Source: an uncultured delta proteobacterium (GTDB lineage: Bacteria > Desulfobacterota > Binatia > UBA9968). Taken from it: a DNA stretch of 64,000 nucleotides. Shown piece after piece: positions 2,296 to 62,858 of this stretch (its first letter is position 1; the number at the start of each line of letters is the position of its first letter). The DNA lies in the NCBI GenBank assembly GCA_963745035.1, contig CAVUVW010000013.1, positions 1,696,001 through 1,760,000 of the forward strand, read 5' to 3'. The notes under the pieces were generated by a model. The model saw nothing but the letters and a program-made list of their open reading frames with translations. It ran no database searches and was not told the origin of the DNA. The translations under genes were made by a program, and so were the position numbers.

Positions 2296-2323
2296 TGCCT
2301 ATTCCAGTTGCCTGTTGCCTATT
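2296..2323 (+). repeat. CTGTTGC/CTATTGC heptamer block
   Basis: ctgcctattccagttgcctgttgcctatt between convergent genes. Confidence 0.7.
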
Positions 2324-2328
2324 CGAAC

Positions 2329-3360
2329 CTACTTCGCCTCCAGGATCTGTTTCACTCGATTCACGATGGCGGGCTCGATCTCGTACAAGCCATTCACCAT
2401 CTTTTCTATGCCGGGTCCATCGATCGGGTCGATCTCGAGCTTCGCTTTTTCCGCCTCGGCGAGAAGCTGAGCATCTTTCAGCGTAGCCATGAAGGCCTTT
2501 TGCAGTGTGCGCACGCGCTGTTCTGGCACTTGGGGCGGCAGCGAATAGAGTCTTTGTTTGCCGTAAAGCTCGCTCGCTATGCGGAGGAGTTTTTTCCCTT
2601 CGTCGGTGTTGGCGTAATCGACCGCGAGCGGGACACCCTTTAGCTCGGGATGAGATTCCATCATCGTCTGGAGCACGACATGGATCTGTTTGGCCTTGAG
2701 CGCGTTGGCCCAAGTCACCTTCGCCGATTGCCAGCCAAAGGAGCAGGTACCGTCGACTTCTCCGGTCTCCGCTGCAACCCTGATGTCGGCGGTGCCCTTG
2801 TAACCCTCGATGAGCTGGAGCGGAAAACCGCTGGCGGCGGCAAGGATCTTCGTGTCATCCGTTCCGCTGGTGCCGGGGCCGATCGCGCCGAGCTTGACGC
2901 GTGTTTTGGCCTTGCGCCACTCCTCTGCCGTCTTGATTCCGCTGCGCTCAGTCAATATGCACACGAGCGAGTCCGCCGTCGGCATACCGAGCCAGCCGAA
3001 CTTGCGCCCCTCGAATTGCACCGCGGGGTTGCCCATCATGTGTTGTAGAATAAGCGGGCCGGACCAATGGCCGATGACCGTGCCATCGCGCGGAGCGCTG
3101 TTGAAAACGTAATTGGCCGAGATCAGCATGGCCGCTCCAGGCATATTTTGCACGACGGTCGACGGTTTACCCGGAACGTATTGAGCAAAGTGGCGCGCGA
3201 TCAGCCGGGTGTACGTATCGTAGCCTCCACCTGCGGAGCCACCGACGATGAACTGGACGGTTTTGCCCTTGTAGAACTCCTCGACCGATGCAGCCGGCGC
3301 CGAGACCACCGATACCGAAATCAAGATAGGGAGCAAAAATACGCCGAGTGCTTTCGCCAT
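2329..3360 (-). CDS. Tripartite tricarboxylate transporter substrate-binding protein (TctC/Bug family)
   Basis: Signal peptide; FYKGKT, GGSAGGGYD, QNMPGA, DGT, GYKG and GEVDG motifs; GGAGG RBS. Confidence 0.9.
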   Translation of the reverse strand: MAKALGVFLLPILISVSVVSAPAASVEEFYKGKTVQFIVGGSAGGGYDTYTRLIARHFAQYVPGKPSTVVQNMPGAAMLISANYVFNSAPRDGTVIGHWSGPLILQHMMGNPAVQFEGRKFGWLGMPTADSLVCILTERSGIKTAEEWRKAKTRVKLGAIGPGTSGTDDTKILAAASGFPLQLIEGYKGTADIRVAAETGEVDGTCSFGWQSAKVTWANALKAKQIHVVLQTMMESHPELKGVPLAVDYANTDEGKKLLRIASELYGKQRLYSLPPQVPEQRVRTLQKAFMATLKDAQLLAEAEKAKLEIDPIDGPGIEKMVNGLYEIEPAIVNRVKQILEAK

Positions 3361-3619
3361 GCGCTACCTCCTGGCAATTTGGCCGTCCTGGCCGGAAGCT
3401 AAGTTGTCCGGGAGGCTCATGTCAAGCGCTTCAGCGGAGATGAGCATGCAGCTTCATCCCCAAACTTTCGGAAACGCATCTACGACTTCAACACTCTGAA
3501 GCCTCCTTCTCGTTGACATTCCAAGACCCCATCGACTATTGACGAAGTCACGAGGCAAAGCTCACGGGTCCGTTTGGCGCATTGACCGGCTACATCGCGC
3601 GGCGCGGGAGAGAGGAACC

Positions 3620-4609
3620 ATGCTAGTCCGTTTCAAAGTCTGTTCGTTTGCCCTGCTTGGTATTATTGTTTTTTTCACTGCGACGCGCGGCCACGGACAG
3701 AGCGTTCCCACCGCCGAGAAGATCGTCGTCAGTTACCCGAGCAAATCCATCACCAACTTTCCGATTTTGGAGACCGCGCGGCAGAAAGGCTTCTTTCAAA
3801 AAGAAGGGCTTCAAGTCAGCCTCGTCTATATCCGCGGCGGCTTGGATATCAAGACGCTGCTCACCAATGATGCCGATTTTGCAATGGGCAGCACCACCGC
3901 CGTAACTGCATTCGTTGCCGGGGCCCCGCTGCGGATTGTTTTGAGCTACAACGCCCACGTCGATCAGGGACTCTACGCCCAGGCCAAGCATCGCCGCATT
4001 GCCGACCTCAAAGGCCAGCCGATCGGATCGCTCAATCCGGGCGGCCTAGTCGATACCATGGTGCGGCGCATTCTCATTAAAAACGGATTGCAGCCGGAGC
4101 GCGATGTGAATCTCCTCGCCATGGGCGGCACGCCGGAACGTTACGCGGCGCTTAAAGCCGGCGCCATCGCCGCGACCATGTTGAGCTCGCCGTTTAATTT
4201 TCTTGCCGACAAAGAGGGCTTTTCGAAGCTCGCCACGACGCGCGATTACGTCGACGTCCCCGGCACAGCCGTGGTCGTGAGCGTCGAGAAGATCAAGAAG
4301 CAGCCCGCCACCATCAAGCGATTCATGCGGGCGTCGCTGCGCGCGATGAAATATATCAGAGACAACCGAGCCGACACGTCGCAGTTGATCGCGCGCGAGT
4401 TCAGCATGGACCAGGAGATCGCCGGCTTGGCCTACAACCAACTCTTGGAGTTGCTCAGCCCGGACGGCAGAAACCGGGTGAGTGGATATCAACTACTCGT
4501 CGACTTTGCCCGTGCCGCGCAAAAAATCGAACGCCCTATCAACGCCGCACAGCTCATAGACGAAACACTCCTCGATGAATTGATGCGCGAGGGAGAAATA
4601 TCGAAGTAA
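3620..4609 (+). CDS. ABC transporter substrate-binding protein, NMT1/THI5/SsuA-like
   Basis: KGFFQKEGL, ADLKG, GL.PERDV and RYAALKAG motifs; RBS gagagga before ATG 3620. Confidence 0.85.
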   Translation: MLVRFKVCSFALLGIIVFFTATRGHGQSVPTAEKIVVSYPSKSITNFPILETARQKGFFQKEGLQVSLVYIRGGLDIKTLLTNDADFAMGSTTAVTAFVAGAPLRIVLSYNAHVDQGLYAQAKHRRIADLKGQPIGSLNPGGLVDTMVRRILIKNGLQPERDVNLLAMGGTPERYAALKAGAIAATMLSSPFNFLADKEGFSKLATTRDYVDVPGTAVVVSVEKIKKQPATIKRFMRASLRAMKYIRDNRADTSQLIAREFSMDQEIAGLAYNQLLELLSPDGRNRVSGYQLLVDFARAAQKIERPINAAQLIDETLLDELMREGEISK

Positions 4610-4704
4610 AAGCGCTCGGCGCCGCGTTCCCGGGCTCGCCGCAATGCCGCGAAAGGGCCAGACGCTTTGGGGCAATCGCCTAGCGGAGGATGAGGGAAGA
4701 CGGT

Positions 4705-4836
4705 TTAACCCGCTTTGTCCTTTGGCGCGGCTGCCAGGCTGAGGGCTTCTTTCTTTTTCCTAAAATACTCGCGCTTGGAAAGCCGCATTGCTTGCCGCTT
4801 GCGCCGTTGCAAGTTTCGTTTGGCGTTCTGGTTCAT
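4705..4836 (-). CDS. Small very basic protein, 43 aa (MNQNAKRNLQRRKRQAMRLSKREYFRKKKEALSLAAAPKDKAG)
   Basis: Hand-translated; GGAGG RBS 7 nt before ATG; below the ORF-track cutoff. Confidence 0.6.
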   Translation of the reverse strand: MNQNAKRNLQRRKRQAMRLSKREYFRKKKEALSLAAAPKDKAG

Positions 4837-5615: not shown

Positions 5616-5660
5616 TTTTGAACGAAGCGCCCCGGTTGAACGTCTTGAACGATCGGAACG
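5616..5660 (+). repeat. TTGAAC 9-mer tandem block
   Basis: ttttgaacgaagcgccccggttgaacgtcttgaacgatcggaacg. Confidence 0.8.
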
Positions 5661-6777: not shown

Positions 6778-6799
6778 GCTCGCAGGTTAGGACGCTATC

Positions 6800-6862
6800 C
6801 GAAACGTTTTGAACGCTTTGAACGAAGCGAAGCGGTTGAACGGCTTGAACGTTTTGGAACGG
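6800..6862 (+). repeat. TTGAAC 9-mer tandem block
   Basis: ttttgaacgctttgaacgaagcgaagcggttgaacggcttgaacgttttggaac. Confidence 0.85.
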
Positions 6863-7554: not shown

Positions 7555-7685
7555 GACCTTGAACTTTTGAACATTGAACCTTGAACGGCGCCACGACATC
7601 GAACCCTTGGCACCACCGGAGCGACCTTCGTCAAACGACTTGAACGGAGCGCAGCGGTTGAACGGCTTGAACGTTTTGAACTGGC
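7555..7685 (+). repeat. TTGAAC block (7/8-mer and 9-mer subtypes)
   Basis: cttgaactttgaacattgaaccttgaac ... ttgaacggagcgcagcggttgaacggcttgaacgttttgaac. Confidence 0.85.
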
Positions 7686-13326: not shown

Positions 13327-13440
13327 GGCCGTCGAGGAAGCCTGCCGTGAGGCTTCTCGAACGGCCTTGAACCATCAAACGGTTTTAACTGAAGGAAAAC
13401 GACGGGACGTTTCTTACTGTTGCCTACTGCCTATTGCATA
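13327..13440 (+). repeat. Hairpin element copy 2 plus TTGAAC and CTGTTGC blocks
   Basis: ggccgtcgaggaagcctgccgtgaggcttctcgaacggcc; tcttactgttgcctactgcctattgc. Confidence 0.7.
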
Positions 13441-14164: not shown

Positions 14165-14215
14165 TAACGGCTTGAACGGAGCGCAGCGGTTGAACGCCTT
14201 GAACGATTTGAATGG
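14165..14215 (+). repeat. TTGAAC 9-mer tandem block
   Basis: cttgaacggagcgcagcggttgaacgccttgaacgatttgaat. Confidence 0.85.
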
Positions 14216-17284: not shown

Positions 17285-17502
17285 CTCGGTCGGGCCAAGC
17301 TATGTGCGTATTACATCGCGACCACTGCTTTCGATGTTTCGAGAATTCTCGAAGCGTGGAAGCTCAGCGTCAGGCCAACTTACCCTGAACTTTGAACCGC
17401 TTCGTCAGGTACCGTTGAAACAACTCTGAAACCGTTCTTCGTTGGCATAACGCTTTGAACAGAGTGAAACGGTTGAACGGTTTTTACTGTTGCCTGTTGC
17501 CT
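17285..17502 (+). repeat. Composite intergenic block: transposase 3'-end tag, GAATTC palindrome, TTGAAC and CTGTTGC units
   Basis: ggtcgggccaagctatgt; tcgatgtttcgagaattctcgaagcgtgga; ttgaacagagtgaaacggttgaac; ctgttgcctgttgcct. Confidence 0.7.
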
Positions 17503-20939: not shown

Positions 20940-21152
20940 CCGGCTTGATGTTTGACGTTTTGAACGGACCCCGGACTCGATCCGCGGGATTGAGCGGCTT
21001 GAACGTTTTGAACGATTCTCATTTACGTTGAACTTTTGAACCTGTTGAACCGCCGCTAGGCATTGAGCGGCTTGAACATTTCTTACTGTTGCCTGTTGCC
21101 TCAGCGTGCCTGTTGCCTATTCCGTTGCCTGTTGCCTATTTGAGTTGCCTAT
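20940..21152 (+). repeat. TTGAAC blocks followed by a long CTGTTGC block
   Basis: Multiple ttgaac units, then tcttactgttgcctgttgcctcagcgtgcctgttgcctattccgttgcctgttgcctatt. Confidence 0.85.
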
Positions 21153-22549: not shown

Positions 22550-22668
22550 ACGCCTTGAACGGACCAGCTTTACATCGAACGACTGTTGAACGATTGAATG
22601 ACGCAGTATCCGAACCCGTTGAACCCTTGAACGTTTGAACGGTTGAACAGCCCATTTCGGTTGAACCG
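22550..22668 (+). repeat. TTGAAC block
   Basis: gttgaacccttgaacgtttgaacggttgaac and neighbouring units. Confidence 0.8.
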
Positions 22669-26162: not shown

Positions 26163-27173
26163 ATGTCCGACGCAGGCAGCGCGAGCCCGACCATTATCCT
26201 TTATCCTTTTGCCTTTATCCTTCCGAGGCTCCGCTTACGCCTCGCGCCTGTTGCCTTAACGTTTCTTTTGCCATTGATCGTGCACTCAACGGCGCGCGCC
26301 GCAGATCGCTACACGATTCACACCTCCGGGCTCAACAGCAGCGTGTATGTCAACATGCTGTACTTCGCCAACCTGGTGAACCGCTATGCGAGCGATTTTA
26401 CCCTGATCACTCTCCCTTCCGAAGGCGGTCCGACGAATATGATTTCAGTCAACGACGGCAAGGCCTCGTTCGGCACGACCACCGCCGAGTCCGTCAAGGC
26501 CGCTTACGAAGGGTCGGGGGATTTCCGCGGCAAGCCGCAAAAAAGGATCCGCCATGTCGCCAGCTTCGGTTTTAGCCTCATGTTCATTTACACCCATCCC
26601 GATTCTCCCGTTCAATCGATCTCCCAGCTCAAAGGAAAGAAAATCGTCTATGGCGGCGGCACCGGTTCGGCGCTGCTGGGAAAACAGATTCTCGATCTTT
26701 ACGGTCTCGCCAATGACGTGGCCGCGACCAGAGGCGACACGGAGAAGGCGCGCGCGGCGCTCGCACGCAAGGAGATCGACGCGGTGTTCACCATCGCCCG
26801 GCTGCCTGTCCCGGCGTACACCGACATGATCAACGGCAATACATTGAAGCTCTTGCCGGTCGAACCGGACAAGATCAAAGCGTTACAGAAAGAATCGCCG
26901 CTTTATAACGAAGTGGATATCCGTGACTTCTATCCGAAGTATCGTGTCGCGACCAAAGCGGTCGGCCTTCCCGGCCCGCTGGTCACGCGAGACGACATGA
27001 ATGAAAAGGTCGTTTATCAAATGCTCAAGATCGTCTACTCCAACATGGACGAGCTTCAGAAGATGAACGAAGGGTTTACCGGCGATTCAGCCGGGACTGG
27101 ATTGCGCGGCCTCACCATCCCGCTCCATCCGGGAGCGGAAAGGTTTTTCACGGAACAGGGAATTGCGAAATGA
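26163..27173 (+). CDS. TAXI family TRAP transporter solute-binding subunit
   Basis: SEGGPTN, AYEG.G.F, LKGKK, VYQMLK and IPLHPGAERFF motifs. Confidence 0.88.
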   Translation: MSDAGSASPTIILYPFAFILPRLRLRLAPVALTFLLPLIVHSTARAADRYTIHTSGLNSSVYVNMLYFANLVNRYASDFTLITLPSEGGPTNMISVNDGKASFGTTTAESVKAAYEGSGDFRGKPQKRIRHVASFGFSLMFIYTHPDSPVQSISQLKGKKIVYGGGTGSALLGKQILDLYGLANDVAATRGDTEKARAALARKEIDAVFTIARLPVPAYTDMINGNTLKLLPVEPDKIKALQKESPLYNEVDIRDFYPKYRVATKAVGLPGPLVTRDDMNEKVVYQMLKIVYSNMDELQKMNEGFTGDSAGTGLRGLTIPLHPGAERFFTEQGIAK

Positions 27174-29394: not shown

Positions 29395-29517
29395 CTTGAA
29401 CGGAGCCTAGCGGTTGTCCTTTCCGCACCAGAGCACGAGCACGGCCTTTGTTATCCTTTATCCTTTTGCCTTTATCCTTCAGAGTGCCTAACGCCTGTTG
29501 CCTATTCAGGTTGCCTT
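29395..29517 (+). repeat. TTGAAC, TTTATCC and CTGTTGC units
   Basis: ttatcctttatccttttgcctttatcctt ... gcctaacgcctgttgcctatt. Confidence 0.75.
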
Positions 29518-30054: not shown

Positions 30055-30324
30055 TGGTTGTCTCCTGTTTCAATACGTCGCGAGCTATATCGTCCAACCG
30101 GGCAAGTCGTCAAGCGCAATTAGATCCAGGTGACACGCAGTTTTGCGTTGACTGGCTCCGCCGATGCAGCGCTCGCATGCGCTTTGATTTGTTCTCGTCG
30201 GGGCACTCGCGTCATACACGAGACCGATCAGCTTCTATCTGACTGTGGCGTTTTGAACTTTGAACCGCGCCTGCCGGTCAACGTCTTGAACCAGTCGAAC
30301 GAGCCCATATTTGACGAATACTGC

Positions 30325-33177: not shown

Positions 33178-33372
33178 CGGTTGAACGACTGGAACGATTG
33201 AAACAATAGAAACGACTGGAACCCAATTCTTTCCCGTTGACGTTGAACTATTGAACTGCCGTTAATCTGACGGATTGAACGGAGCGCAGCGGTTGAACGG
33301 CTTGAACGGAGTAAAATGGTTGAACGAGCTCTTTTCAGAAACGTTGAACTTTTGAACCTTTGACCGTTGAAT
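33178..33372 (+). repeat. Long TTGAAC block
   Basis: More than 12 ttgaac/tggaac units; 33211-33248 recurs at 34794-34831. Confidence 0.85.
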
Positions 33373-34587: not shown

Positions 34588-34880
34588 ACTGTTGCCTGTT
34601 GCCTCGTGCCTTACGCCTGTTTGTTGGAAGTCATAAAGGGGACAAGCTACTTTTTTCTCATTTCGCGGCCGACCGGGCGAGCGCGATTGCTTCCGACCAG
34701 ATTGAACGTCTGGAACCATTGAAACAGCTGGAACTATTGGAACCACTCTCCTTTGTAAAACGTCTTGAACGGAGCGCAGCGGTTAACGGCTGGAACGACT
34801 GGAACCCAATTCCTTTCCGTTGACGTTGAACGTTTGAACGGTTGAACCTTGAACAAGTTCTTTCGTACTGTTGCCTATTT
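34588..34880 (+). repeat. CTGTTGC and TTGAAC blocks with a short transposase scrap
   Basis: ctgttgcctgttgcctcgtgccttacgcct; gcgattgcttccgaccag (WSEAIA on - strand); many ttgaac units. Confidence 0.8.
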
Positions 34881-35609: not shown

Positions 35610-35746
35610 AGCGTAGCGGTTGAACGGCTTGAACGTTTTTAACCGGCTTCAGTATGGTTAGCGGTTGAACGTCTGGAAACAATTGAAAGCATTGGAACCG
35701 AGCTGTTGTTCCGATGACGTTGAACTTTTGAACCGTTGAACTTTGA
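35610..35746 (+). repeat. TTGAAC block
   Basis: gagcgtagcggttgaacggcttgaacg ... gttgaacttttgaaccgttgaactttgac. Confidence 0.8.
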
Positions 35747-37992: not shown

Positions 37993-38009
37993 GATTCGTT
38001 CCAGCCGGT

Positions 38010-38177
38010 CGTTCAAGGTTTCAGGTTCAAAGTTCAAGGTAAAACGGCGGGCGATGCCGGTTGTTCGTCAGTCTTAAACGTTTTGAACGGAGCGGAGCGG
38101 TTGAACGGTTTGAACGATCTTGAACGGTTGTCCTTGACGTTGAACGTTGAAGTTAGCGATTGAACGATTTGAACGGG
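38010..38177. repeat. Short inverted (GTTCAA) block followed by a TTGAAC block
   Basis: gttcaaggtttcaggttcaaagttcaagg, then ttgaacggagcggagcggttgaacggtttgaac. Confidence 0.8.
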
Positions 38178-38537: not shown

Positions 38538-38655
38538 TTCCAATCGATACAACTCCGTCGTGTGGACCGGGGTTGTTTTCATAGTGCGAGCGTTTCCGAC
38601 CAGCGAATCGCTTGATCGAACGTTGAACGGCCGCTCTCCGATCAACGATTGGAAC

Positions 38656-38719
38656 CGCGCCAAGCGATGAAACCATTGGAACGTTTGCAACCGTTCTTCC
38701 GAACGTTTTGAACGGAGCG
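38656..38719 (+). repeat. 64-bp direct repeat, left copy
   Basis: Matches 39369-39432 with 2 mismatches. Confidence 0.85.
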
Positions 38720-39368: not shown

Positions 39369-39455
39369 CGCGCCAAGCGATGAAACCATTGGAACGTTTG
39401 GAACCGTTCTTCTGAACGTTTTGAACGGAGCGAAGCGGTTGAACGGCTTGAACGT
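39369..39455 (+). repeat. 64-bp direct repeat, right copy, within a TTGAAC block
   Basis: cgcgccaagcgatgaaaccattggaacgtttggaaccgttcttctgaacgttttgaacggagcg. Confidence 0.85.
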
Positions 39456-41906: not shown

Positions 41907-42087
41907 TAAACGTTTTGAACGACTTGAACTGAGTGAAACGGTTGAACGACTTGAACGACTTTTGCTGTTGCCTATTGCCTGCTGCAGACTTCGCCGACTT
42001 ACCTCTCACTCCTCACTTCTTCTTCTTACTGTTGCCTGTTGCCTCTTGCCTGTTGCCTGTTGACTGTGCCTCTTGACCTGCCTGCTA
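41907..42087 (+). repeat. TTGAAC, TCACTCC and CTGTTGC blocks
   Basis: ttttgaacgacttgaactgagtgaaacggttgaac; tcttactgttgcctgttgcctcttgcctgttgcctgttg. Confidence 0.85.
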
Positions 42088-43446: not shown

Positions 43447-43510
43447 TTGAACTTTTGAACCCTTGAACCTTGAACCGCCGTTGATCTGACGGCTTGAACG
43501 GTTTGAACAA
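43447..43510 (+). repeat. TTGAAC block containing a 52-bp direct repeat (left copy)
   Basis: 43447-43498 matches 45516-45567 with 2 mismatches. Confidence 0.85.
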
Positions 43511-43557
43511 GTTAGTTCTGACCAATCCCTGTTGCGCCAACTCGCTCAACATGCCGG

Positions 43558-44613
43558 CTAACGAATAGGAAGCGATTCGGGACCCGCAAGTTGCCTGAAC
43601 AACTTGATCGTCTCCGTATCGCGTGGAACTCCAGTTATGAGTTTTTCAAGTTCTTCACCATGCAATGGCGACGGGTCAGTGCCGGTCAACTTTTTGAAGT
43701 CTTTTAAGAAACCAGGGTCGCTAAAAGTTCTGCGAAACGCGGTTCGCAGAATCTGTACGTATTCGACAGGGGTGTTGGGAGGCAAGAAATAGGGCCACCG
43801 GGGTAATTGCAACGCACGAAACAGCGTCAACAGGGCGTGTTCCTTCTCGCTTTTCGCGAAACTGTCGAGATCGGGTAATTTGGCGAACCTAGGATGTGGA
43901 CTTCCCTTCGGAAGGCTAAGGCCGAGATGCAAATGCACCATTCCCTTGTCGAACCACTCAGGATTTCGGTGTAGAGCTGTGTTTGCACTATTTAATAACC
44001 CGTCAACTTCGCCGGCCAAAACTGCGGCGTCAAGATCCGGCCCATCATAGCCGGTCACGAATCGGGCGCTTTTCAGATCGAGCAGATAGGCAACGAGGCG
44101 CCCGCCATAATACTTCGGGTGCCCTACCGTCTCGGCCCCGATGCGCAGCCCTGATGTATCTCGGAGCTTTTTGAGCGTATCGATTCCAGCCTCTTTCCGG
44201 GTATAGAAGACATACGGTTCGCCTGCGGTCGTGGAACCCAGATAGGAAAATCGATCCGGTTCGTAATCTACCCCGGTAAGTCCCAACACGGTACCCGCGA
44301 CCAACCCGGCTCCGAGAGCGCCGATCGTCAGACCGTCAGGCTGAACAGTTCGATACATCTGATTTACCATCTTTAAACCGGCGGCACCGGGGACATACTC
44401 AAGAAGGATCGTGGGCTCCCCCGGGATATGCTTTTTAAGGTACGGCATAACGGCTCTGGTTTGCATGTCCCCAAAGCCGCCCGGACCTCCGCCGCGCAGG
44501 ATTTTTATGGTTTTACCCGCGTAAAAGGGAGTAGCAGGTGCTGCGCCGCCCCACGCAAGATTCATTGAAATTTGACACAGTAGAACGGACAAACAAAAGG
44601 CAAAAAACTTCAT
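43558..44613 (-). CDS. TctC/Bug family substrate-binding protein
   Basis: FYAGKT, GGGPGGFGD, YVPGAAG, PDGLTIG and GEVDG motifs; GGAGG RBS. Confidence 0.88.
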   Translation of the reverse strand: MKFFAFCLSVLLCQISMNLAWGGAAPATPFYAGKTIKILRGGGPGGFGDMQTRAVMPYLKKHIPGEPTILLEYVPGAAGLKMVNQMYRTVQPDGLTIGALGAGLVAGTVLGLTGVDYEPDRFSYLGSTTAGEPYVFYTRKEAGIDTLKKLRDTSGLRIGAETVGHPKYYGGRLVAYLLDLKSARFVTGYDGPDLDAAVLAGEVDGLLNSANTALHRNPEWFDKGMVHLHLGLSLPKGSPHPRFAKLPDLDSFAKSEKEHALLTLFRALQLPRWPYFLPPNTPVEYVQILRTAFRRTFSDPGFLKDFKKLTGTDPSPLHGEELEKLITGVPRDTETIKLFRQLAGPESLPIR

Positions 44614-45444: not shown

Positions 45445-45757
45445 ACGTTTGGAACCGCCGCAAAGCGATGAAACCATTGGACGATTGGAACCGTTCTTTG
45501 TCCTGAATCCAACCGTTGAACTTTTGAACCGTTTAACCTTGAACCGCCGTTGATCTGACGGCTTGAAGGCAGCGAAGCGATTGAACGATTTTAACGTTTT
45601 GAACCACTCCCGTTTACGTTGAACGTTTGAACCGTTGAACTGTTGAACGAGTTCTTTCCCCTAGCGCCTCACCTCTCACCCATCACGCCCTTCTTCTTAC
45701 TGTTGCCTGTTGCCTATTGCCTGCTTAGGTTGCCTGTTGCCTCCCGCCTGTTGCCTT
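45445..45757 (+). repeat. Long composite block: TTGAAC, then TCACGCC, then CTGTTGC
   Basis: About 15 ttgaac/tggaac units followed by gcctcacctctcaccc and tcttactgttgcctgttgcctattgcct. Confidence 0.85.
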
Positions 45758-47364: not shown

Positions 47365-47580
47365 GCCGAGTCGGACCAAGCTATGTCGTTACTTCATCGA
47401 CAGTTTGATTCCAAAAGAACGTGTTTCGGTGCTTAGAGCCGCTTCGGTCACATCGCGCTGCACAAAGTTGGTGTTCGCTTTCAACGATTTGAACGGAGCG
47501 AAGCGGTTGAACGATTGGAACTGGCTTCAGTGTTGAGCTGCATGCTCCCGGCGATATACGCCGGTCCGACCCACGACCCT
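47365..47580. repeat. Transposase 3'-end remnant, TTGAAC block and GGTCCGACCC tags
   Basis: gagtcggaccaagctatgt...gtgtttcggtgcttagagcc; ttgaacggagcgaagcggttgaac; ccggtccgaccc. Confidence 0.65.
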
Positions 47581-48161: not shown

Positions 48162-48390
48162 GAGCTCACGTTGTCGTACCTAGAAGCGTTTTGCGTATAT
48201 GCTCCGGTTACGGTCCGAACTGCGCCGCTTCGTAGACCGGCCCAAATTCTGCGCGCGCTTGTCTACATTGGGTTCAAAACGGGCCTTGTCACCACTTCTC
48301 ATCAAAAGCGGCTTTTTTCGCTCCAGTCAGGATACAACGTCTGCGGCGCCTTCGCCAAACACCCGAGACCGTTGCTGAGCAAAGCTCATT

Positions 48391-48840
48391 GAACATTTCG
48401 AGAATTCCCGAAACGTGGAAGTTTTCGTGAGTTCGCATTCGTTCATTTTGAAGTTGCTTTGGTCCGACCCGGGACTGAGCCCGTGCTAATCTTGGATTAA
48501 CGACTTGAACGGAGCGAAGCGATTGAACGACTTGAACGTTTTGAACGATTTATGTTGAACGATTGAACCATTGAACGGTTGAACGAATTCTTTTCTTACC
48601 ACGCCTCACGCCTCACGCCTCACGTCCTTCTTCCTACTGTTGCCTGTTGCCTCTCGCCTGTTGCCTATTCGACGTTTGACACCTTCTCCCGTCGGCGCTA
48701 TTTCTTTCGCAAAAGATTGAGAGTCATTACGTTTGGAACCGCGCAAGCGATGGAACCATTGGAACGATTGGAACTTGTTCTTCGGTTGTAGAACGATTTG
48801 AACGGAGCGCAGCGGTTGAACGGCTTGAACGATTTGAACC
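48391..48840 (+). repeat. Composite block: GAATTC palindrome, GGTCCGACCC, TTGAAC, TCACGCC, CTGTTGC, TTGAAC
   Basis: cacgcctcacgcctcacgcctcacgtc; ctgttgcctgttgcctctcgcctgttgcctatt; many ttgaac units. Confidence 0.85.
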
Positions 48841-49509: not shown

Positions 49510-49622
49510 AAACGTTTTGAACGGAGCGCAGCGGTTGAACGGTTTGAACGATTTGAACTTGCTTCAGTGTATTTCGGGTCTGACCCAGCTATATCGTTGC
49601 TTTGTGCCGGTCCGACCCGGCC
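49510..49622 (+). repeat. TTGAAC block and GGTC(C/T)GACCC tags
   Basis: ttttgaacggagcgcagcggttgaacggtttgaacgatttgaac; gggtctgaccc; ccggtccgacccgg. Confidence 0.8.
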
Positions 49623-56156: not shown

Positions 56157-56362
56157 TCGATGTTTCGAGAATTCCCTAAACGTGGAAGTCCCCACCTCCG
56201 CATTGTATTTGCCGTTAACGATTTGAACGGAGCAAAGCGATTGAACGATTTGAACTGAGTGAAATGGTTGAACGAGTTCTCTCTACTGTTGCCTGTTGCC
56301 TCGTGCCTCACGCCTATTCGTCAACGACTTGAACTGAGTGAAACGGCTGAACGATTGGAACT
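56157..56362 (+). repeat. GAATTC palindrome, TTGAAC and CTGTTGC blocks
   Basis: 56284-56321 is identical to 58568-58605. Confidence 0.85.
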
Positions 56363-56448
56363 CTTACCTCCGGACTGTTGAGCACTTGACGAATTTCGCT
56401 CTCCGGGGATACATACGTGCATAGGAACAACTCAATGGAGGAACTCAC

Positions 56449-57052: not shown

Positions 57053-57207
57053 CGAAACAGAGTGAACGCGGCTTTAAACGATTTGAACGGAGCGCGGCGG
57101 TTGAACGGCTGGAACGTTTTGAACGAGCTCTTTCTGCTCACCCCTCACGACTCACTCCTCACTTCTTCTTCTTACTGTTGCCTGTTGCCTCGCGCCTGTT
57201 GCCTATT
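57053..57207 (+). repeat. TTGAAC, TCACnCC and CTGTTGC block
   Basis: ttgaacggagcgcggcggttgaac; ctcacccctcacgactcactcctcac; tcttactgttgcctgttgcct. Confidence 0.85.
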
Positions 57208-57222
57208 AGTTATCATTTGGCC

Positions 57223-57516: not shown

Positions 57517-57879
57517 GTATGCTTAATTAACTGATTGGTTGAAGGATTGTATTGCCGCGCTAAAACAGGTCAAGGGGAAAGTTGGCTGCGTTACCGTGTT
57601 AGATGAAAGAACGCCCCTGAGCGGTTTCTGGCGTGCGTTGCCGCGGCCCGTCAGATGATAAATCACACCGGGAAAATTCTAATCGTAGGGGACGCACCAT
57701 TGCACCGCCTTCTTTTATCGGATTGTCGGACGAAATGTGTTATTGCAAGACTTGACCCGCTACTTTTCTTCTCGCTTCGCGGCCGGCCGGCTTGAACGGC
57801 TTGAATTCTCGGCACGGAGTGCTTCTCGCACTCTGCCTGACCGTTTTTCAATGAAAAAGTAGCCTCTCCCCTTTTCTCT

Positions 57880-58368
57880 CTATTGTACTTTCGGCTCAGA
57901 CGGCAGTCCCTGACCCGTTTCCACTTTCGGCGTTGCTGGAGCTTTTGTCAGGGCTAAAATATTGCTCAGTACTTCTTCTATCATTTCTTGTGGAGATAAC
58001 CGGGTGAGCGATGTGTGGTAGGAGTTGCCGACAGCCAGAGGTTGATTATGAACGGGCTCTCTCAGTGTAACAGTGAGCTCAAGCAGATACAGCGTGATGT
58101 CCCACATCCACTTGTCTACGTAAGTGATATACGCGTCAGTCTTGTAGGAAGAGGGCGGCATTTCCGGCCCCGCCACGGAGTGGTAACCTTTCAGTGAGAG
58201 ATTGTCGCTGATCATCTGGTGGAGTCCTTGCTTATCTCGCGGCTGATGCACCACGTAGAAAGATTTAACTCGGCTGAGATCGGCGCCGGGCATCAGAGTC
58301 GCCGTCGCTCGGTTTATACAACCCGACACCGCTATACCGACTAAAAGGAACAAAGAGATGGATTTCAT
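57880..58368 (-). CDS. Lipoprotein, hypothetical
   Basis: Lipobox VSGC; TYVDKWMWDITLYLLEL; GGAGG RBS. Confidence 0.75.
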   Translation of the reverse strand: MKSISLFLLVGIAVSGCINRATATLMPGADLSRVKSFYVVHQPRDKQGLHQMISDNLSLKGYHSVAGPEMPPSSYKTDAYITYVDKWMWDITLYLLELTVTLREPVHNQPLAVGNSYHTSLTRLSPQEMIEEVLSNILALTKAPATPKVETGQGLPSEPKVQ

Positions 58369-58404
58369 ATACGCCTCCGTAAGCCAATTTACGCGCCATT
58401 CACG

Positions 58405-58850
58405 GGGTCGGGACCAGGCTATGTCCTTCCATCATCACCGGTTTCGTTCCAGAGGAAAGCGTTTTGACGCCTTAGAGCCTCATTTTCACCGGCAAATTTA
58501 AGCCCGTGTGCGGATAAATCCGACGTTGAACGTTTGAACGATTGAACCGTTGAACGAATTCTTTTCTTACTGTTGCCTGTTGCCTCGTGCCTCACGCCTA
58601 TTCGTTGGCTCGCGCAGCGCGTAACTTCCATCGGCTTCGACTTCCGATGTGCGAAGTTGGTGCTCGCTTCTAAACGACTTGAACGGAGCGAAGCGGTTGA
58701 ACGACTGGAACAACTTGAACTGGCCCCGTTTTAAGCCAAGCTCGCTTTTCACCTTCTCAACAAAAGACCGACTTCCAACCGCGATTGCTTCCGACCAGCG
58801 ATCGTCGCGGACCGGTAAGCCATTCTCCAGTCCTCGCTCAACCACTGAGC
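58405..58850 (-). pseudogene. Y1/REP-associated tyrosine transposase 3' remnant split into three collinear pieces by repeat blocks
   Basis: VERGLENGLPVRDDRWSEAIAVGSRSFVEKVKSELGLK | repeat | EVEADGSYALREP | repeat | GLKFAGENEALRRQNAFLWNE. Confidence 0.65.
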
Positions 58851-58976
58851 GCTGTTCTCTAAAACGTTTCTTGGTTCTTAACGTCTTGAACGGAGCGAAG
58901 CGATTGAACGATTTGAACGGCTTGAACGAATCAAGTTTACGTTGAACGGCTTGAACGTTTTGAACGGGCGTCAGTC
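58745..58976 (+). repeat. 232-bp direct repeat, left copy
   Basis: Ungapped match to 61151-61382; last 136 bp differ at one position. Confidence 0.9.
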
Positions 58977-59005
58977 TTAGTTAGGTTGGACGTGCTCCAG
59001 GCGCC

Positions 59006-60844: not shown

Positions 60845-61150
60845 GAAATTGCTCCGTTCAGGGGAAACACCCCCTCCCGCACCGCTGGTGTTGATACTAG
60901 CTCTTTCGGGCACAGAAGGATACCATTGATCGTTGGCACCGATCCTTCTAAAACTTCGACCCAATTGCATTCTCTCTCAGCCGATCTCTATCGGCCCACC
61001 AAGAGAGAATTCACGGCCGAGTCCTAATTTGCCAAACGATTTGAACGAAGCGAGCGATTGAACGTTTAGAACGGCTGGAACGGTCCTCGGTTTATGGGGT
61101 GGGCGCAACGATTGCAAAAGAGCAGTTAGGGTCAGACTTCTACGACTCAA

Positions 61151-61382
61151 CTTTTCACCTTCTCAACGAAAGGCCGACTTCCAACAGCGATCGCTTCGGA
61201 CCAGCGATCATCGCGACGTGCTAATCCCTTCTCCAAACCTTGCTCGACCACTGAGCGCTGTTCTCTAAAACGTTTCTTGGTTCTTAACGTCTTGAACGGA
61301 GCGAAGCGATTGAACGGTTTGAACGGCTTGAACGAATCAAGTTTACGTTGAACGGCTTGAACGTTTTGAACGGGCGTCAGTC
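61151..61382 (+). repeat. 232-bp direct repeat, right copy (transposase remnant plus TTGAAC block)
   Basis: RDDRWSEAIAVGSRPFVEKVKS on the - strand, then a repeat block near-identical to 58841-58976. Confidence 0.9.
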
Positions 61383-61389
61383 CTAGTGA

Positions 61390-61553
61390 GCGGTTGAACG
61401 ACTTGAACAGCCTTGGCCGCCTCACCCCTCACGACTCACGCCTCACGCCCTTCTTCTTCCTGTTGCCTATTGCCTGTTGCCTATTCCAGTTGCCTGTTGC
61501 CCGTGCCTATTGCCTGATCGACGTTGAACTTTTGAACGATTGAACCTTGAACC
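61390..61553 (+). repeat. TTGAAC, TCACGCC, CTGTTGC and TTGAAC blocks
   Basis: ctcacccctcacgactcacgcctcacgccc; ctgttgcctattgcctgttgcctattccagttgcctgttgcc. Confidence 0.85.
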
Positions 61554-61597
61554 GCGCCGCGAGGCGGGAGCGCAGGGCTGTGATGAACGAGGGCGAT

Positions 61598-62389
61598 CTA
61601 CCGTCCAGTGTTTGCCGCGGCGTCGGGCTGCATTTGCAGGAGCACGGTCGGCTGCACGGCGTTCGGCCCGACAAACGGGCGATCGTGCGCGGTGATCAAC
61701 AGGATGCAAACAGCAATGGCCGTCGAGAAGACTCCCATGGCGATGGCCGCCGTCGTCCGATTGTCGACGTGAACCATCGCAATCGCCGTCAGCATGCAGA
61801 TCGCCTGCACGATGAGACTCATCCACTTGACCGGATTCACCTCCGACTGACTGATCAGGATCCGTTGGCGGCGGGCATCGAGCGCGTTCTCGAGCGAGGC
61901 GACGATCGCCCGTTGCGCGGCCGCTTGTCCCTCACCTTGCACCGGCAAGGCGAGAGTGGTTTGCATCGCTTGCACCAATGAGGCTGCGACTATCGTGATC
62001 GTCGCGCGGCCGCTGGCCATCGCAGGCCACTCAGCGGTCTGTGCCTCGTGAATATGCTGACGGATCAATCCACGCAAATGAGCCGCCTTTCCCGGAAAGC
62101 TCTCGGACAGAATGACGACGTCTCTGAGCGCGCTGGCCTCCCGGTTGACCTCGATATGCGCCCGATCCTGGTCACGCCACGCCTCCGTCGCAAGAAACGC
62201 AACGAGCAACCCGAACATGATGCCGAGCGGAGACAGCAACGCTGGTGAGACCGCTTTGAACGCGTTCGCGCGCTCGCCGACGGCGAGCGAATGGACAACG
62301 AGAAGAATGGCGGCCGCGCTCAAAAACGTGCCTCCGAAGATTAGGATCGCCATCCAGCCTAACGGCAGGCCATGAAACCAATCGCTTAT
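61598..62389 (-). CDS. DUF4239 (bestrophin-like) membrane protein
   Basis: G.MFGLLVAFLA..AW, V.REASALR, EWPAM, ARRQRI and DRPF.G...V.P motifs; AGGAGG RBS precedes an ATA codon at 62389. Confidence 0.8.
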   Translation of the reverse strand: MSDWFHGLPLGWMAILIFGGTFLSAAAILLVVHSLAVGERANAFKAVSPALLSPLGIMFGLLVAFLATEAWRDQDRAHIEVNREASALRDVVILSESFPGKAAHLRGLIRQHIHEAQTAEWPAMASGRATITIVAASLVQAMQTTLALPVQGEGQAAAQRAIVASLENALDARRQRILISQSEVNPVKWMSLIVQAICMLTAIAMVHVDNRTTAAIAMGVFSTAIAVCILLITAHDRPFVGPNAVQPTVLLQMQPDAAANTGR

Positions 62390-62699
62390 GTCGGTCCTCC
62401 TTTCCGAAGACGACGAGGTGGCGGAGTTACATTCCGCCGACACCTGACGTCGTCGCAAAGGCAGAACGCAAAGAGCATAGCGCCTCCAAGAGAGAATATG
62501 TTTTTCTTCAATGCGTCCCTGTCACCACCGCTGTGCCTATTTTGTACCTGAATTTGGGCAGAACATACACCTTCCATTGCCGAAAACAAAAGCCAAGCGA
62601 GCCTCGAAATGGTTGGATTTTCTTTTTAATGTTTGGTTCTGGTCCGCGCTGATCTGAGAGGTTGATCTAAGAGCTCGTAAACTCTGCCATCGGAGTTAG

Positions 62700-62858
62700 C
62701 TTGAACGAATCAAGTTTACGTTGAACGATTGAACCATTGAACCGTTGAACGAGTTCTTACCACTCACCCCTCACCCCTCACGCTCTTCTTCCTAACTGTT
62801 GCCTGTTGCCTCTCGCCTGTTGCCTATTCACGTTGCCTGTTGCCTAATGCCTACTCAC
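62700..62858 (+). repeat. TTGAAC, TCACCCC and CTGTTGC block
   Basis: ttgaacgaatcaagtttacgttgaac (third partial copy of the ftsH-flanking repeat); ctcacccctcacccctcac; ctgttgcctgttgcctctcgcctgttgcct. Confidence 0.85.

Follow-up and report, generated by a model that had tools for sequence, protein, structure and literature searches.

The repeat blocks of the 64-kb stretch of DNA analysed here (the window) belong to a REP-like family of non-coding repeats that is specific to the genus and laid down strand-specifically. We judge it probable (roughly 0.6) that they represent a REP/RAYT-type, single-strand-dependent repeat system, the window being one arm of a REPtron-like locus grown to ~106 kb. 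Genome-wide, TTGAAC reads on the C-rich strand whatever the direction of the neighbouring gene, and the 3' end of the TTGAAC reading abuts an open reading frame (ORF). The number of units in an array changes among species at orthologous sites, and among the copies are inverted doublets with a REPIN-like hairpin fold. Overall, the interpretation offered in the initial annotation of this DNA is partly supported.

Strand polarity in the window and across the genome

All motifs in the window favour the plus strand over the minus: TTGAAC (165 vs 18), CTGTTGC (42 vs 3), TCACGCC (14 vs 4), TTTATCC (7 vs 3), the 12-mer TTGAACGGAGCG (15 vs 0) and TTGAACTGAGTGAAACGG (2 vs 0). For TTGAAC on both strands summed, dinucleotide shuffles give an expectation of 37.2 +/- 5.9, and the observed 183 was reached in 0 of 100 shuffles; the minus-strand count is therefore that of chance, and the plus strand is ~9-fold enriched. 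Nearly all hits are intergenic, and arrays of 7, 8 and 9 bases were also found independently by Tandem Repeats Finder. With a block defined as a cluster of at least three motif hits within 120 bp, 30 plus-strand blocks span positions 5618-62843 (Table 1), in agreement with the ~30 intergenic blocks of one polarity described initially. Two minus-strand clusters were found; that at 23243-23382 consists of three spaced, intragenic hits and is not a true block, leaving the single reversed block that the initial annotation had noted. The genes flanking the 30 plus-strand blocks, called with our own codon-usage ORF caller, are oriented ++ in 8 cases, +- in 8, -- in 8 and -+ in 6. Block polarity is thus independent of gene orientation, as had been claimed. 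Among the window proteins scanned, 29 of 35 have a Pfam match (17 on the plus strand, 12 on the minus). The host is a soil bacterium.

Table 1. Repeat blocks and associated features, in window positions.
Feature	Position	Strand	Remarks
Island left edge	2264..2312	.	core synteny with four relatives stops at 2264-2270; first, single CTGTTGC at 2312
Block, 3 TTGAAC units	5618..5651	+	flanks + +
Block, 5 units	6809..6861	+	flanks + +
Block, 8 units	7559..7682	+	flanks + -; 18-nt head TTGAACGGAGCGCAGCGG at 7640; 18 nt to stop of gene 7700-8122(-)
Block, TTGAAC + CTGTTGC-type heptads	13367..13437	+	flanks + -; 6 nt to nitroreductase gene stop
Headed 9-mer array	14172..14205	+	upstream of amidohydrolase gene (+)
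Block, TTGAAC units then 2 heptads	17392..17500	+	flanks - -; 3 nt to stop of gene 17503-17931(-)
Composite block, 7 TTGAAC units then 4 heptads	20960..21135	+	flanks - -
Block, 7 units	22555..22667	+	divergent (- +) intergenic region
TTTATCC heptads + CTGTTGC	26200..26254	+	flanks + +
TTGAAC head, TTTATCC heptads, CTGTTGC	29396..29501	+	flanks + -; 5 nt to stop of gene 29506-30054(-)
Block, 3 units	30253..30292	+	flanks - +
Block, 11 units	33181..33358	+	includes head at 33275
Block, 14 motif hits	34589..34874	+	heptads, TTGAAC/TGGAAC units, heptad
Block, 7 units	35620..35742	+	67 nt upstream of NMT1-family gene (+)
Sole true reversed block	37998..38038	-	+ strand reads GTTCAA units; ~6-18 nt past stop of glyoxalase-family gene 37117-37992(+)
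Headed block, 7 units	38083..38175	+	
Block, 4 units	38623..38714	+	
Headed block, 5 units	39390..39454	+	22 nt to stop of gene 39476-40531(-)
Composite block	41915..42056	+	TTGAAC units, heptads, CAC heptad, heptads
Block, 8 hits	43447..43630	+	short hairpin-like cgccgttgatctgacggc between units
Composite block, 17 hits	45450..45754	+	order: TTGAAC arrays, CACSCC heptads, CTGTTGC heptads
Headed array	47489..47522	+	one extra 9-nt unit at 47508 in one metagenome contig
Block, 23 hits, window's largest	48289..48840	+	end 32 nt upstream of isochorismatase-family gene
Headed array, 4 units	49517..49559	+	
Composite block, 9 hits	56223..56362	+	
Composite block	57083..57202	+	head, units, 3 CAC heptads, 3 CTGTTGC heptads
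Composite block, 11 hits	58526..58721	+	
Second Y1-type transposase gene, remnant	58729..58854	-	57% identity over 42 aa to intact L023 copy
Headed block, 7 units	58886..58966	+	40 nt to stop of FtsH-family gene 59006-60970(-)
Block, 3 units	61041..61082	+	
Composite block, 22 hits	61292..61553	+	45 nt to stop of bestrophin-like gene (-)
Composite block, 11 hits	62701..62843	+	26 nt to stop of gene 62869-63633(-)

Outside the island of which the window forms a part, 193 arrays were found in 7.4 Mb, and the C-rich strand carries the TTGAAC reading in 86 of 102 solo arrays (binomial p 9e-13; one genome, whole assembly, with our own crude gene calls). Solo arrays are GTTCAA-sense in 41 cases vs 5 beside G-rich-strand genes and TTGAAC-sense in 22 vs 5 beside C-rich-strand genes; it is thus GC skew, and not the direction of transcription, that array polarity follows. 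Gene bias cannot explain this 84% agreement, since 915 of 1629 long ORFs (56%) lie on the G-rich strand. Heptad doublets also obey the skew rule (29 vs 8), and the bias is weaker for headed modules taken by themselves (17 vs 10). TTGAAC agrees with skew in 89 of 112 bins, a test that is weak on its own because a control word, CAAGTT/AACTTG, is also strand-biased as single hexamers, in the opposite sense (34 vs 77). Array polarity thus follows the replication-linked GC skew, which serves only as a proxy for replication direction; at dnaA (C13:475,020-475,496) there is no clean skew switch.

That GTTCAA lies in sense just past the stop codon in 41 of the 46 arrays beside G-rich-strand genes first suggested a 3'-end element, and more generally a transcription-oriented element acting at the RNA level, such as a 3'-UTR stabiliser, terminator or leader element. 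This reading is contradicted by the reversal of sense at C-rich-strand genes (22/27), where the array stands before the start codon. Given also the evenly mixed gene contexts in the window, the absence of an Rfam match and the lack of a fold signal in solo arrays, we consider it extremely unlikely. The gene-independent tracking of skew by solo arrays is what would be seen if the arrays were KOPS/Chi-type polar signals, with a translocase or recombination machine as reader and with selection acting on how they are oriented to replication, a role that had been proposed initially. However, the arrays are intergenic and sparse, sister species differ in unit number or lack the array at orthologous sites, the family is peculiar to one genus, inverted doublets with a net polarity of nil make up 30 of the arrays, and the densest region is two-armed inside one skew domain. 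A signalling role of this kind is thus highly unlikely.

A two-armed island with a RAYT gene between its arms

A lower-GC island of ~106 kb (GC 0.46-0.58, vs ~0.60 in the flanks) has the window as its left arm and lies within a ~161-kb strain-specific region. TTGAAC reads on the plus strand at C13 ~1.700-1.764 Mb and on the minus strand at ~1.774-1.806 Mb; polarity switches ~10-14 kb past the window, and GC skew stays negative. Elsewhere in the genome TTGAAC and GTTCAA occur at ~0.3 per kb on each strand, so the density of blocks is that of a local island and no chromosome-wide signal. The two-armed layout recurs in two other species (G004:C6 and G040:C2) within single-skew regions, and one arm of each two-armed island breaks the skew rule. 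Given this recurrence, and a polarity flip without a skew flip, a second rule must apply here, namely orientation relative to the RAYT locus. In the initially proposed comparison of motif orientation with GC skew, run on the whole assembly, most solo arrays follow the skew and one arm of the island does not. The related proposal of a fork-linked or ssDNA-dependent process gains from the skew rule and from the HUH enzyme at the arm's inner end.

The gene for this RAYT-class HUH transposase, L001:1015-1905(-), lies on the minus strand just beyond the window (window-equivalent 65,015-65,905), at the inner end of the window's arm, ~2 kb left of the switch interval and between arms of opposite polarity; in G004:C6 and G040:C2 the RAYT gene is inside the switch interval. 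The protein matches Pfam Y1_Tnp (E 5e-20) and the NCBIfam equivalog 'REP-associated tyrosine transposase' (84.8 bits, cut-off 80), and all 11 aligned homologues keep both its HUH motif (H60-V61-H62) and Y119 unchanged. Among PDB folds, its AF2 model is best matched by 4er8_A, in which the E. coli RAYT is in complex with a REP hairpin (E 2.9e-7, TM 0.70 on target). The C-terminus is DnaA-domain-IV-like, with Bac_DnaA_C matched by 11 of 11 homologues (best E 2.9e-7; the present protein just 0.063).

The association of RAYT with arrays is one of position only, at three two-armed loci and one partial locus. At L065, the partial locus, a 74%-identical RAYT is accompanied by 14 GTTCAA in one kb ~3-4 kb downstream. 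Six other loci with 54-57% paralogues are not array-rich (G015:C9, G018:C34, G018:C1, G039:C25, G037:C23 and G036:C22), and in the wider protein family recurrent hexamer arrays were found at 1 of 80 loci only, from the same genus. An array scan of 18 relatives was positive in 17, and 12 of these 17 gave no RAYT match at E<=1e-90; G006 and G014, at 99% completeness, have arrays and no such match.

If the REP/RAYT-type reading is correct, a RAYT-class Y1 HUH enzyme would make and amplify the repeats on single-stranded DNA. Its substrate would be the strand exposed at the replication fork, that is, the G-rich, GTTCAA-reading strand, which we take to be the lagging-strand template, and recognition of the 9-bp units may fall to the enzyme's DnaA-domain-IV-like C-terminal HTH. 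Ton-Hoang et al. 2012 (PMC3333891) propose that RAYT drives the amplification of REP units in tandem by a rolling-circle-like process, possibly acting on ssDNA of the lagging-strand template.

Modules, doublets and turnover

In its basic form a module opens with an 18-nt head (TTGAAC-GGAGCGNAGCGG) and goes on with TTGAAC-N1-3 units, to which CACSCC and CTGTTGC heptads are often added in the island. Copies of the conserved head and of a near-identical 45-nt module are present at 47 loci (16 in the island). Of the arrays outside the island, 30 are inverted doublets, 28 of them in one configuration, with complementary spacers and a mean folding z of -7.3. Such numbers of headed modules and doublets argue for copying rather than chance. 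Known Y1 enzymes recognise hairpins, whereas neither solo arrays (folding z -0.26) nor island blocks (z -2.2 to +1.9) have hairpin potential.

Unit counts at orthologous intergenic regions were 5 vs 1, 4+4 vs 2+0, 4 vs 3 and 4 vs 0. Of the 18 other genomes of the genus, 17 proved to carry a 4-unit array; none was found in 12 genomes from other genera of the order, and a reversed-pattern control found 0. Plain microsatellite-type replication slippage, with strand-biased mutation and no dedicated enzyme, could yield the unit-number polymorphism seen among species and in metagenome contigs, as well as the variable spacer length (1-3 nt). It is nevertheless very unlikely in view of the shared head and module, the palindromic doublets, the fixed order of three unit types in composite blocks and the restriction to one genus. 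Alternatively, the repeats could serve in regulation or architecture as operator- or centromere-like arrays, bound for instance by ribbon-helix-helix or DnaA-like HTH proteins, and RAYT would be incidental. Head-to-tail hexamers with a regular 7-9-bp period, array ends at a median distance of 15 nt to an ORF and the HTH encoded by the island are all compatible with this. Arrays are, however, oriented and placed alike next to ORF starts and ORF stops, a pattern that fits poorly with gene regulation, and with rapid turnover among species and a 45-nt module in frame within an ORF in L023, we find this explanation quite improbable.

Gene cassettes of the island

The genes of the island behave as single-gene cassettes, 83-97% identical to relatives' copies vs 74-79% in adjacent core DNA, and their order is shuffled between species. 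In our own reading of the comparisons, orientation relative to local array polarity is kept in 23 of 24 cassette matches (12 of 12 in G018:C12). A repeat block lies on the same side of every gene, in either gene direction, and single-gene homology units stop at or beside blocks. Homology with relatives starts directly after block 45450..45754, and the last 164 nt of block 48289..48840 travel with the isochorismatase-family gene in another species (94.5% identity).

These features, and the presence of the island at non-orthologous loci in different species, would also suit an integron-like gene-capture platform, in which RAYT actively excises and inserts whole cassettes with fixed polarity and the blocks are recombination sites, not just accumulating repeats. 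Yet there is no fixed crossover (the HpaB cassette has left blocks in G000 and none in L021 or L023), the blocks themselves are poorly conserved across genomes, and array-rich arms in G037:C50 and G018:C12 have no intact RAYT in view. Block-block joints in metagenomes, with their short sides (23-65 nt) at 90% likeness, could be artefacts of the repeats. Homologous recombination of same-sense repeats would give the same pattern without an enzyme, and we regard gene capture by RAYT as rather unlikely. Under the REP/RAYT-type reading, cassettes are exchanged among species and shuffled with their orientation to the blocks retained, and recombination of same-sense blocks would maintain uniform polarity. 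Within the window, the Y1 transposase remnant is part of a 250-nt flank that is duplicated at 61151-61400.

Repeat blocks of the window and their distribution

The initial annotation held that about 30 intergenic repeat blocks read on the plus strand whatever the direction of the flanking genes, and our counts bear this out. TTGAAC occurs 165 times on the plus strand of the window and 18 times on the minus strand, CTGTTGC 42 and 3 times, TCACGCC 14 and 4 times, TTTATCC 7 and 3 times, and the 12-mer TTGAACGGAGCG 15 and 0 times. Summed over both strands, the 183 copies of TTGAAC compare with an expected 37.2 +/- 5.9, and none of 100 dinucleotide-preserving shuffles reached that number; Tandem Repeats Finder picked up dozens of arrays, of period 7, 8 or 9. 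Clustering of the motif hits gave exactly 30 plus-strand blocks, and the gene pairs that flank them, as called with our own codon-usage ORF caller, are ++ (8), +- (8), -- (8) and -+ (6). Pfam matches were obtained for 29 of 35 scanned window proteins, 17 on the plus and 12 on the minus strand, and both strands therefore carry real genes. The single clear reversed block noted earlier at about 38010-38040 was recovered and is the sole true one; a second minus-strand cluster consists of three spaced hits inside a gene (see the table of features below).

The core of the repeat unit is TTGAAC, sometimes TGGAAC, with a spacer of 1-3 nt, and in many arrays the first 18 nt form a head, TTGAAC-GGAGCGNAGCGG, that precedes TTGAAC-GGC-TTGAAC-GTT-TTGAAC. 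The larger blocks of the island, the ~106-kb lower-GC region whose left arm is the window, keep a constant order in which TTGAAC arrays are followed by CACSCC-type heptads, a CTTCTTC stretch, CTGTTGC/CTATTGC heptads and then the next gene. Each gene has its block on its low-coordinate side, 3-45 nt from the stop of a minus-strand gene (the exceptions are one at 82 nt and an 18-nt overlap with the called gene 21117-22385) and about 20-270 nt from the start of a plus-strand gene. Nine island blocks gave folding z-scores of -2.2 to +1.9, with no fold signal on either strand, and a scan of the Rfam models at gathering thresholds returned no match for known RNA families.

The arrays belong to a genus-specific, fast-evolving family of polar tandem repeats. 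Of 18 further genomes of the genus, 17 contain arrays of four units, a tally that includes the unpublished G005; 12 genomes representing four other genera of the same order contain none, and a reversed-pattern control also gave 0. Between species, the number of units at orthologous intergenic regions was 5 versus 1, 4+4 versus 2+0, 4 versus 3 and 4 versus 0, and one metagenome contig carries a single extra 9-nt unit. Metagenome contigs from four runs contain many block-to-block joints, among them, in X10 and X15, a 683-nt skip that removes the isochorismatase cassette; the sides of such joints span only 23-65 nt at 90% likeness and we did not count them as evidence. The loose contig ends at the edges of blocks say no more than that the blocks are repetitive.

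Other repeated sequences accompany the blocks. The 9-mer GGTCCGACC occurs seven times on the plus strand of the island and never on the minus strand (38 versus 27 genome-wide), and may be a second polar element or the debris of one. Upstream of two headed blocks lie the copies of a 250-nt sequence duplicated in direct orientation at 91% identity, part of which is the remnant of a second Y1-type gene. In the island of a relative (locus L023), a 286-aa ORF encodes a second type of Y1 transposase with an NHVHLL motif, and contains near its N-terminus a complete 45-nt headed array in frame, reading ...FVQTVQAVQSLRSVQTV...

Array polarity and GC skew

Genome-wide, we found 224 arrays of at least three units, 193 of them outside the island at a density of about 1 per 38 kb. 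Sixty of these outside arrays form 30 inverted doublets, 28 in the GTTCAA...TTGAAC configuration, and these fold into long hairpins with a mean z of -7.3, as REPINs do; solo arrays do not fold (mean z -0.26 for 120 strands of 60 arrays). The earlier annotation had proposed plotting repeat polarity against GC skew, and we did so over the assembly. Of the 133 solo arrays outside the island, 21 overlap a gene call, 8 have an absolute skew below 0.012 and 2 lack a flanking call; the remaining 102 were used.

Strand of TTGAAC in solo arrays outside the island, by genomic context
Context	On C-rich strand	On G-rich strand	Remark
Tandem region, gene on G-rich strand	41	5	the 41 read GTTCAA in the gene's sense
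Tandem region, gene on C-rich strand	22	5	the 22 read TTGAAC in the gene's sense
Convergent region	15	5
Divergent region	8	1
All contexts	86	16	binomial p 9e-13

In this one genome, with crude gene calls and with skew as a proxy for the direction of replication, 86 of 102 solo arrays follow the sign of the skew. Long ORFs lie on the G-rich strand in only 56% of cases, so that array polarity goes with GC skew rather than with the direction of genes. The array end that is 3' in the TTGAAC reading is a median of 15 nt from an ORF, and the other end a median of 104 nt. Our first reading, that of an element linked to transcription at the 3' ends of genes, was dropped once tandem intergenic regions had been split by gene strand. 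Base composition cannot explain the placement either, since the strand of an array that reads TTGAAC is itself G-rich and lies on the C-rich strand of the genome. Heptad doublets follow the skew likewise (29 to 8), and headed modules taken alone do so less clearly, by 17 to 10. Single hexamers were a weaker support, for TTGAAC outnumbers GTTCAA on the C-rich strand in 89 of 112 bins, and a control word was biased too, in the opposite sense (34 to 77); the claim of polarity thus rests on the arrays and not on the hexamers.

The proposal that the blocks are replication-linked stands in part: solo arrays follow the skew, but the polarity of the island flips without a change of skew. The window is positions 1,696,001-1,760,000 of C13, the contig that carries the island, and the enrichment is local. 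On the plus strand of C13, TTGAAC prevails from ~1.700 to 1.764 Mb and GTTCAA from ~1.774 to 1.806 Mb, and per contig the two are about equally frequent elsewhere in the 7.4-Mb assembly. As GC skew is negative on either side of the flip, we ruled out a chromosomal origin or terminus at this position. Nor did dnaA serve as a marker of the origin, since it sits at no clean skew switch in this assembly of 28 contigs. It lies in a region of weak skew, 175 kb from a 150-kb stretch of positive skew in the otherwise negative-skew 1.97-Mb contig; the two arrays in that stretch follow the local sign.

Two further arrangements were seen outside the island. Contig C24 carries a seventh inverted array doublet apart from a run of six, which are spaced about 1.1 kb from one another. 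Each of the six marks the 5' end of one copy of a gene repeated in tandem, whose product, read from the downstream sequence, is apparently a periplasmic binding protein; they sit where one would look for its signal peptide. Several headed arrays are directly preceded by a GC-rich hairpin repeat, CCTCCCCCGCG-N-CGCGGGGGAGG, and then a G-rich tail, and this hairpin is a classical REP-like palindrome that may form part of the headed-array element.

The island, its cassettes and the RAYT-class gene

The island has a GC content of 0.46-0.58, compared with ~0.60-0.62 outside. Core synteny with four relatives ends at its left border and is picked up again, in two of the four, far to the right, a gap that places the island within a strain-specific region of ~161 kb; the core DNA that adjoins it is 74-79% identical to those relatives. 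Insertion at a tRNA gene was rejected, as neither the window nor 71 kb of flanking DNA contains a gene for tRNA or tmRNA. Between the plus-sense and minus-sense arms lies a switch interval of 10.4 kb with genes for a STAND NTPase with a PRTase-CE domain, an IS3-type transposase, an SF1 helicase, RadC and a 23S-IVP-type protein. Within the interval lies a low-GC cluster that looks like a defense or mobile insertion; its STAND NTPase is 1105 aa long with the PRTase-CE domain C-terminal, its transposase comprises two ORFs, and its helicase (727 aa) has an RNase-H-like N-terminus.

Features of the island, its contig and compared loci (positions without a prefix are window positions; L001 is the stretch that begins directly after the window; C9 to C24 are contigs of the genome under study; G004 and G040 are other genomes of the genus)
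Location	Strand	Feature
2264-2270		end of core synteny with four relatives
10181-11281	-	cassette, 366-aa protein with N-terminal TIR_2/ThsB-like TIR domain
23243-23382	-	cluster of three spaced motif hits
37998-38038	-	reversed block
47508		extra 9-nt unit in one metagenome contig
25421, 45386, 47563, 48461, 49609; island 67765, 111375	+	GGTCCGACC sites
55001-63000		segment matched in metagenomes
58745-58992 and 61151-61400		250-nt direct duplication
58729-58854	-	remnant of second Y1-type gene
C13:1,763,880 (approx.)		last plus-sense heptads
L001:1015-1905 (window-equivalent 65,015-65,905)	-	RAYT-class gene
L001:3947-13191 (C13:1,763,947-1,773,191)		low-GC cluster, 0.46-0.49
C13:1,774,270 (approx.)		first minus-sense arrays
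Island 78404-79034 and 90355-90985 (C13:1,774,404 and 1,786,355)		repeated segment, 98% identical over 631 nt
C13:1,859,612		core synteny picks up again
C13:150,000-300,000		stretch of positive GC skew
C13:475,020-475,496		dnaA
C24:46,600-52,300; C24:32.2 kb		six inverted array doublets; seventh doublet
C11:32,545; C11:125,250; C17:265,415; C19:122,550; C9:51,080; C13:1,894,750		CCTCCCCCGCG-N-CGCGGGGGAGG sites
L023:12993-13853	-	286-aa ORF of second Y1 type
G004:C6, 585-589 kb		plus-sense arrays
G004:C6, 590.4-591.3 kb		RAYT gene, followed by 17 kb of minus-sense arrays
G040:C2, 46-48 kb		plus-sense arrays
G040:C2, 49.26-50.12 kb		RAYT gene
G040:C2, 50-56 kb		minus-sense arrays

Homology of the island to relatives comes in single-gene pieces that end at or beside blocks and are 83-97% identical. 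The copies lie on contigs other than those with the orthologues of the core flank and in a different order, and by our own reading of the comparisons 23 of 24 cassette matches have kept their orientation relative to the local array polarity (12 of 12 in G018:C12, 5 of 5 in G037:C50, 5 of 5 in G004 and 1 of 2 in G040). There is no fixed crossover point, as the HpaB piece directly follows heptads in the genome under study and has no adjacent block in two other genomes; a candidate junction motif at cassette borders, TGCCAGAT, was rejected because it occurs once per strand in the island. The functions of the cassettes are diverse and accessory. Those of the left arm include a metallo-beta-lactamase fold, NMT1/TctC binding proteins, YCII, TIR, an APH-type kinase, nitroreductase, amidohydrolases, RidA, CN-hydrolase, HpaB, an FtsH paralogue, subtilase, isochorismatase, a bestrophin-like protein and GST, and the right arm carries genes for small 23S-IVP, Phd and ORF6N proteins. 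The right arm is rich in paralogous small-gene segments and encodes several four-helix proteins of the 23S-rRNA-IVP type.

A gene of the RAYT (REP-associated tyrosine transposase, TnpA-REP) class lies 2 kb to the left of the switch interval. Its 296-aa product has an IS200-like Y1 domain (E 5e-20) and matches the 'REP-associated tyrosine transposase' equivalog NF047646 at 84.8 bits (cut-off 80), while its score against NF033573 (IS200), 26.1 bits, is below the cut-off of 55. All 11 of the aligned homologues share the HUH motif N59-H60-V61-H62 and, within RYIHLNP, the single catalytic Y119. The AlphaFold model has an overall pLDDT of 66, with N and C domains at ~77-92 and a linker (142-215) below 50, and its best PDB match in Foldseek is 4er8_A, an E. 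coli RAYT with a REP hairpin (E 2.9e-7, target-normalized TM 0.70, 141 columns), followed by ISDra2 and IS608 TnpA (E 5e-7 to 1e-5). From profile and model comparisons, the C-terminal part resembles DnaA domain IV: Bac_DnaA_C (PF08299) is matched by 11 of 11 homologues (best E 2.9e-7), weakly by the protein itself (E 0.063, residues 219-278), and the DnaA structures 1l8q and 3r8f appear in the fold search at E 7e-3. The genome has one close copy of the gene and four other matches, at three paralogue loci, with at most 46% identity. Public records that contain close homologues are titled 'Candidatus Binatia bacterium' or 'uncultured delta proteobacterium'.

Three species have this layout, a cassette-rich island of two arms whose polarity switch has a RAYT-class gene at it or next to it. 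In G004:C6 and G040:C2 the RAYT gene lies inside the switch interval; the former protein is 70% identical, and the latter is 55% identical and its gene inverted relative to the arms. The arrangement that defines a REPtron, a RAYT gene between inverted repeats, is thus present at all three loci. GC skew is single-signed across each of the two additional loci (positive in G004, negative in G040), and at every two-armed locus one arm obeys the skew rule, with TTGAAC on the C-rich strand, and the other does not. A further locus, L065, has a 74%-identical RAYT with 14 copies of GTTCAA within one kb, ~3-4 kb downstream. Genomes with a RAYT match at E<=1e-90 average ~32 four-unit arrays compared with ~14 in those without, in a set in which many metagenome-assembled genomes are incomplete. 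Against a simple link between RAYT and arrays stand six loci with 54-57% RAYT paralogues, which are neither array-rich nor flanked in the manner of a REPtron, the array-rich plus-sense arms of G018:C12 and G037:C50, which have no intact RAYT in view, and a hexamer-array scan of the wider family in many phyla, which found arrays at 1 of 80 loci. G009 (49 arrays) and G014 (27) also have no RAYT match at E<=1e-90. The notion that other RAYT paralogues have short-repeat arrays of their own was rejected on that scan and on Tandem Repeats Finder, which returned nothing consistent at 15 loci.

Relation to known repeat and cassette systems

We regard the island system as one of the REP/RAYT kind in a new form, with RAYT and arrays associated by position. 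As in the REPtrons of Escherichia, Pseudomonas and Stenotrophomonas, the gene for a RAYT-class Y1 HUH protein is flanked by candidate repeats in inverted orientation, and the inverted arms of the island correspond to the inverted repeats that define a REPtron. Like REPs and BIMEs, the arrays form a lineage-specific family with hundreds of extragenic copies, lie near ORF ends and are amplified in tandem, a process for which a RAYT-driven model is outlined in PMC3333891. They differ in being head-to-tail direct repeats of 7-9 nt, whereas a REP is a GTAG-tagged palindrome of 20-40 nt; copies that stand alone show no folding and lack the imperfect palindrome with a 5' tetranucleotide tag. Unlike those of REPtrons, the flanks extend over 30-60 kb and dozens of genes, array polarity follows GC skew and the protein has a DnaA_C-like domain. 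The 30 inverted doublets outside the island, which fold as one hairpin, resemble REPINs, the doublet that accounts of the classical systems regard as the mobile unit (PMC3337134, PMC3116915); yet most copies are strand-biased singlets, namely the 133 solo arrays found elsewhere in the genome and, in the island, every copy except one pair, and the window blocks are singlets. Our literature search, at the level of main texts, retrieved no report of skew-oriented REP-type repeats.

By domain content, the protein resembles TnpA-REP subclass 2.1 and TIRYT (PMC6006769, PMC3733652), which share the long Y1 protein and the C-terminal Bac_DnaA_C/HTH-like domain. In the sections of Quentin et al. 2018 (PMC6006769) that concern these genes, no REP-like sequences are reported near subclass 2.1 and the TIRYT flanks have a GGGGWSAS consensus; the neighbors here are instead 9-bp tandem arrays. 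With IS200/IS605 elements (IS608, ISDra2) the protein shares the HUH/Y1 fold, and the strand-specific activity of those elements, with an orientation tied to the lagging-strand template as described in the relevant passages of PMC3333891 and PMC6006769 (citing Ton-Hoang 2010), matches the skew-linked polarity of the arrays. In contrast to IS200/IS605, tnpB is absent, the repeats do not derive their sequence from the ends of the transposase gene, the gene is present in one close copy and not in multiple identical ones, and inspection of its flanks revealed no left- or right-end hairpins of the IS200/IS605 type.

Sedentary chromosomal integrons share with the island a uniform polarity of sites even where a cassette gene is inverted, single-gene units, an order shuffled between relatives and, in one arm, small genes of the toxin-antitoxin type. 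They differ from it in that the island has two arms of opposite polarity, no defined crossover point and no attC-like hairpins in its blocks. An integron integrase (IntI) was rejected, because none of the 20 PF00589 matches in the genome, and hence no tyrosine recombinase, is on C13. The comparison with KOPS and Chi in the initial annotation holds for the correlation of orientation with the sign of GC skew (the same 86 of 102 arrays) and fails in that the arrays are intergenic, sparse outside the island, fast-evolving and confined to one genus, whereas a KOPS-like signal would be frequent across the chromosome, in genes and in related taxa. Cyanobacterial STRR repeats are intergenic tandem heptanucleotides of unknown origin, and one of their units resembles the reverse of CTGTTGC. 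They belong to a different phylum, we know of no link between them and RAYT, polarity or cassette islands, and a literature search on them found nothing relevant.

The following reading of how the system works is, in our view, more likely than not. RAYT, which belongs to a class of single-stranded-DNA enzymes, would make and amplify the arrays on the strand exposed at the replication fork, and its DnaA-like domain would read the 9-bp units. Arrays would grow towards the adjacent ORF until selection stopped them, and recombination between blocks of the same sense would shuffle the cassettes and preserve polarity. Taken further, the island would be a platform for gene cassettes that functions like an integron but is driven by an HUH transposase acting on single-stranded DNA. 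RAYT, with its DnaA-like domain reading the 9-bp arrays, would capture single genes at the polar blocks, shuffle them and pass them between species, and so build two mirror-image arms around its own gene. We consider this doubtful, at about one chance in five. Were it true, the orphan 'subclass 2.1' RAYTs would gain their missing DNA partner, and if RAYT drives the island, integron-like gene capture could be reached in two ways that are unrelated in mechanism.

Few repeats are as common in bacteria as those of REP/RAYT systems, and their spread and its coupling to replication were, in the pages of PMC3333891 on this subject, proposed and not shown. The skew-following, gene-independent polarity of the arrays, together with their positional association with RAYT, makes that idea directly testable. 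The 9-bp tandem arrays are also a candidate DNA partner for the large RAYT-like class with a DnaA-like domain, and if they are that partner, the gap left by Quentin et al. 2018 (PMC6006769), as far as its treatment of subclass 2.1 goes, would be filled. A 106-kb two-armed island of inter-species cassettes is in itself a new architecture of the flexible genome, in an uncultured soil lineage. Near-identical 31-mers of one segment close to the right end of the window occur in soil, rhizosphere and winery metagenomes from 10 studies (word share 0.47-0.80, 14 DNA runs), and the organism, or the island, is therefore widespread.
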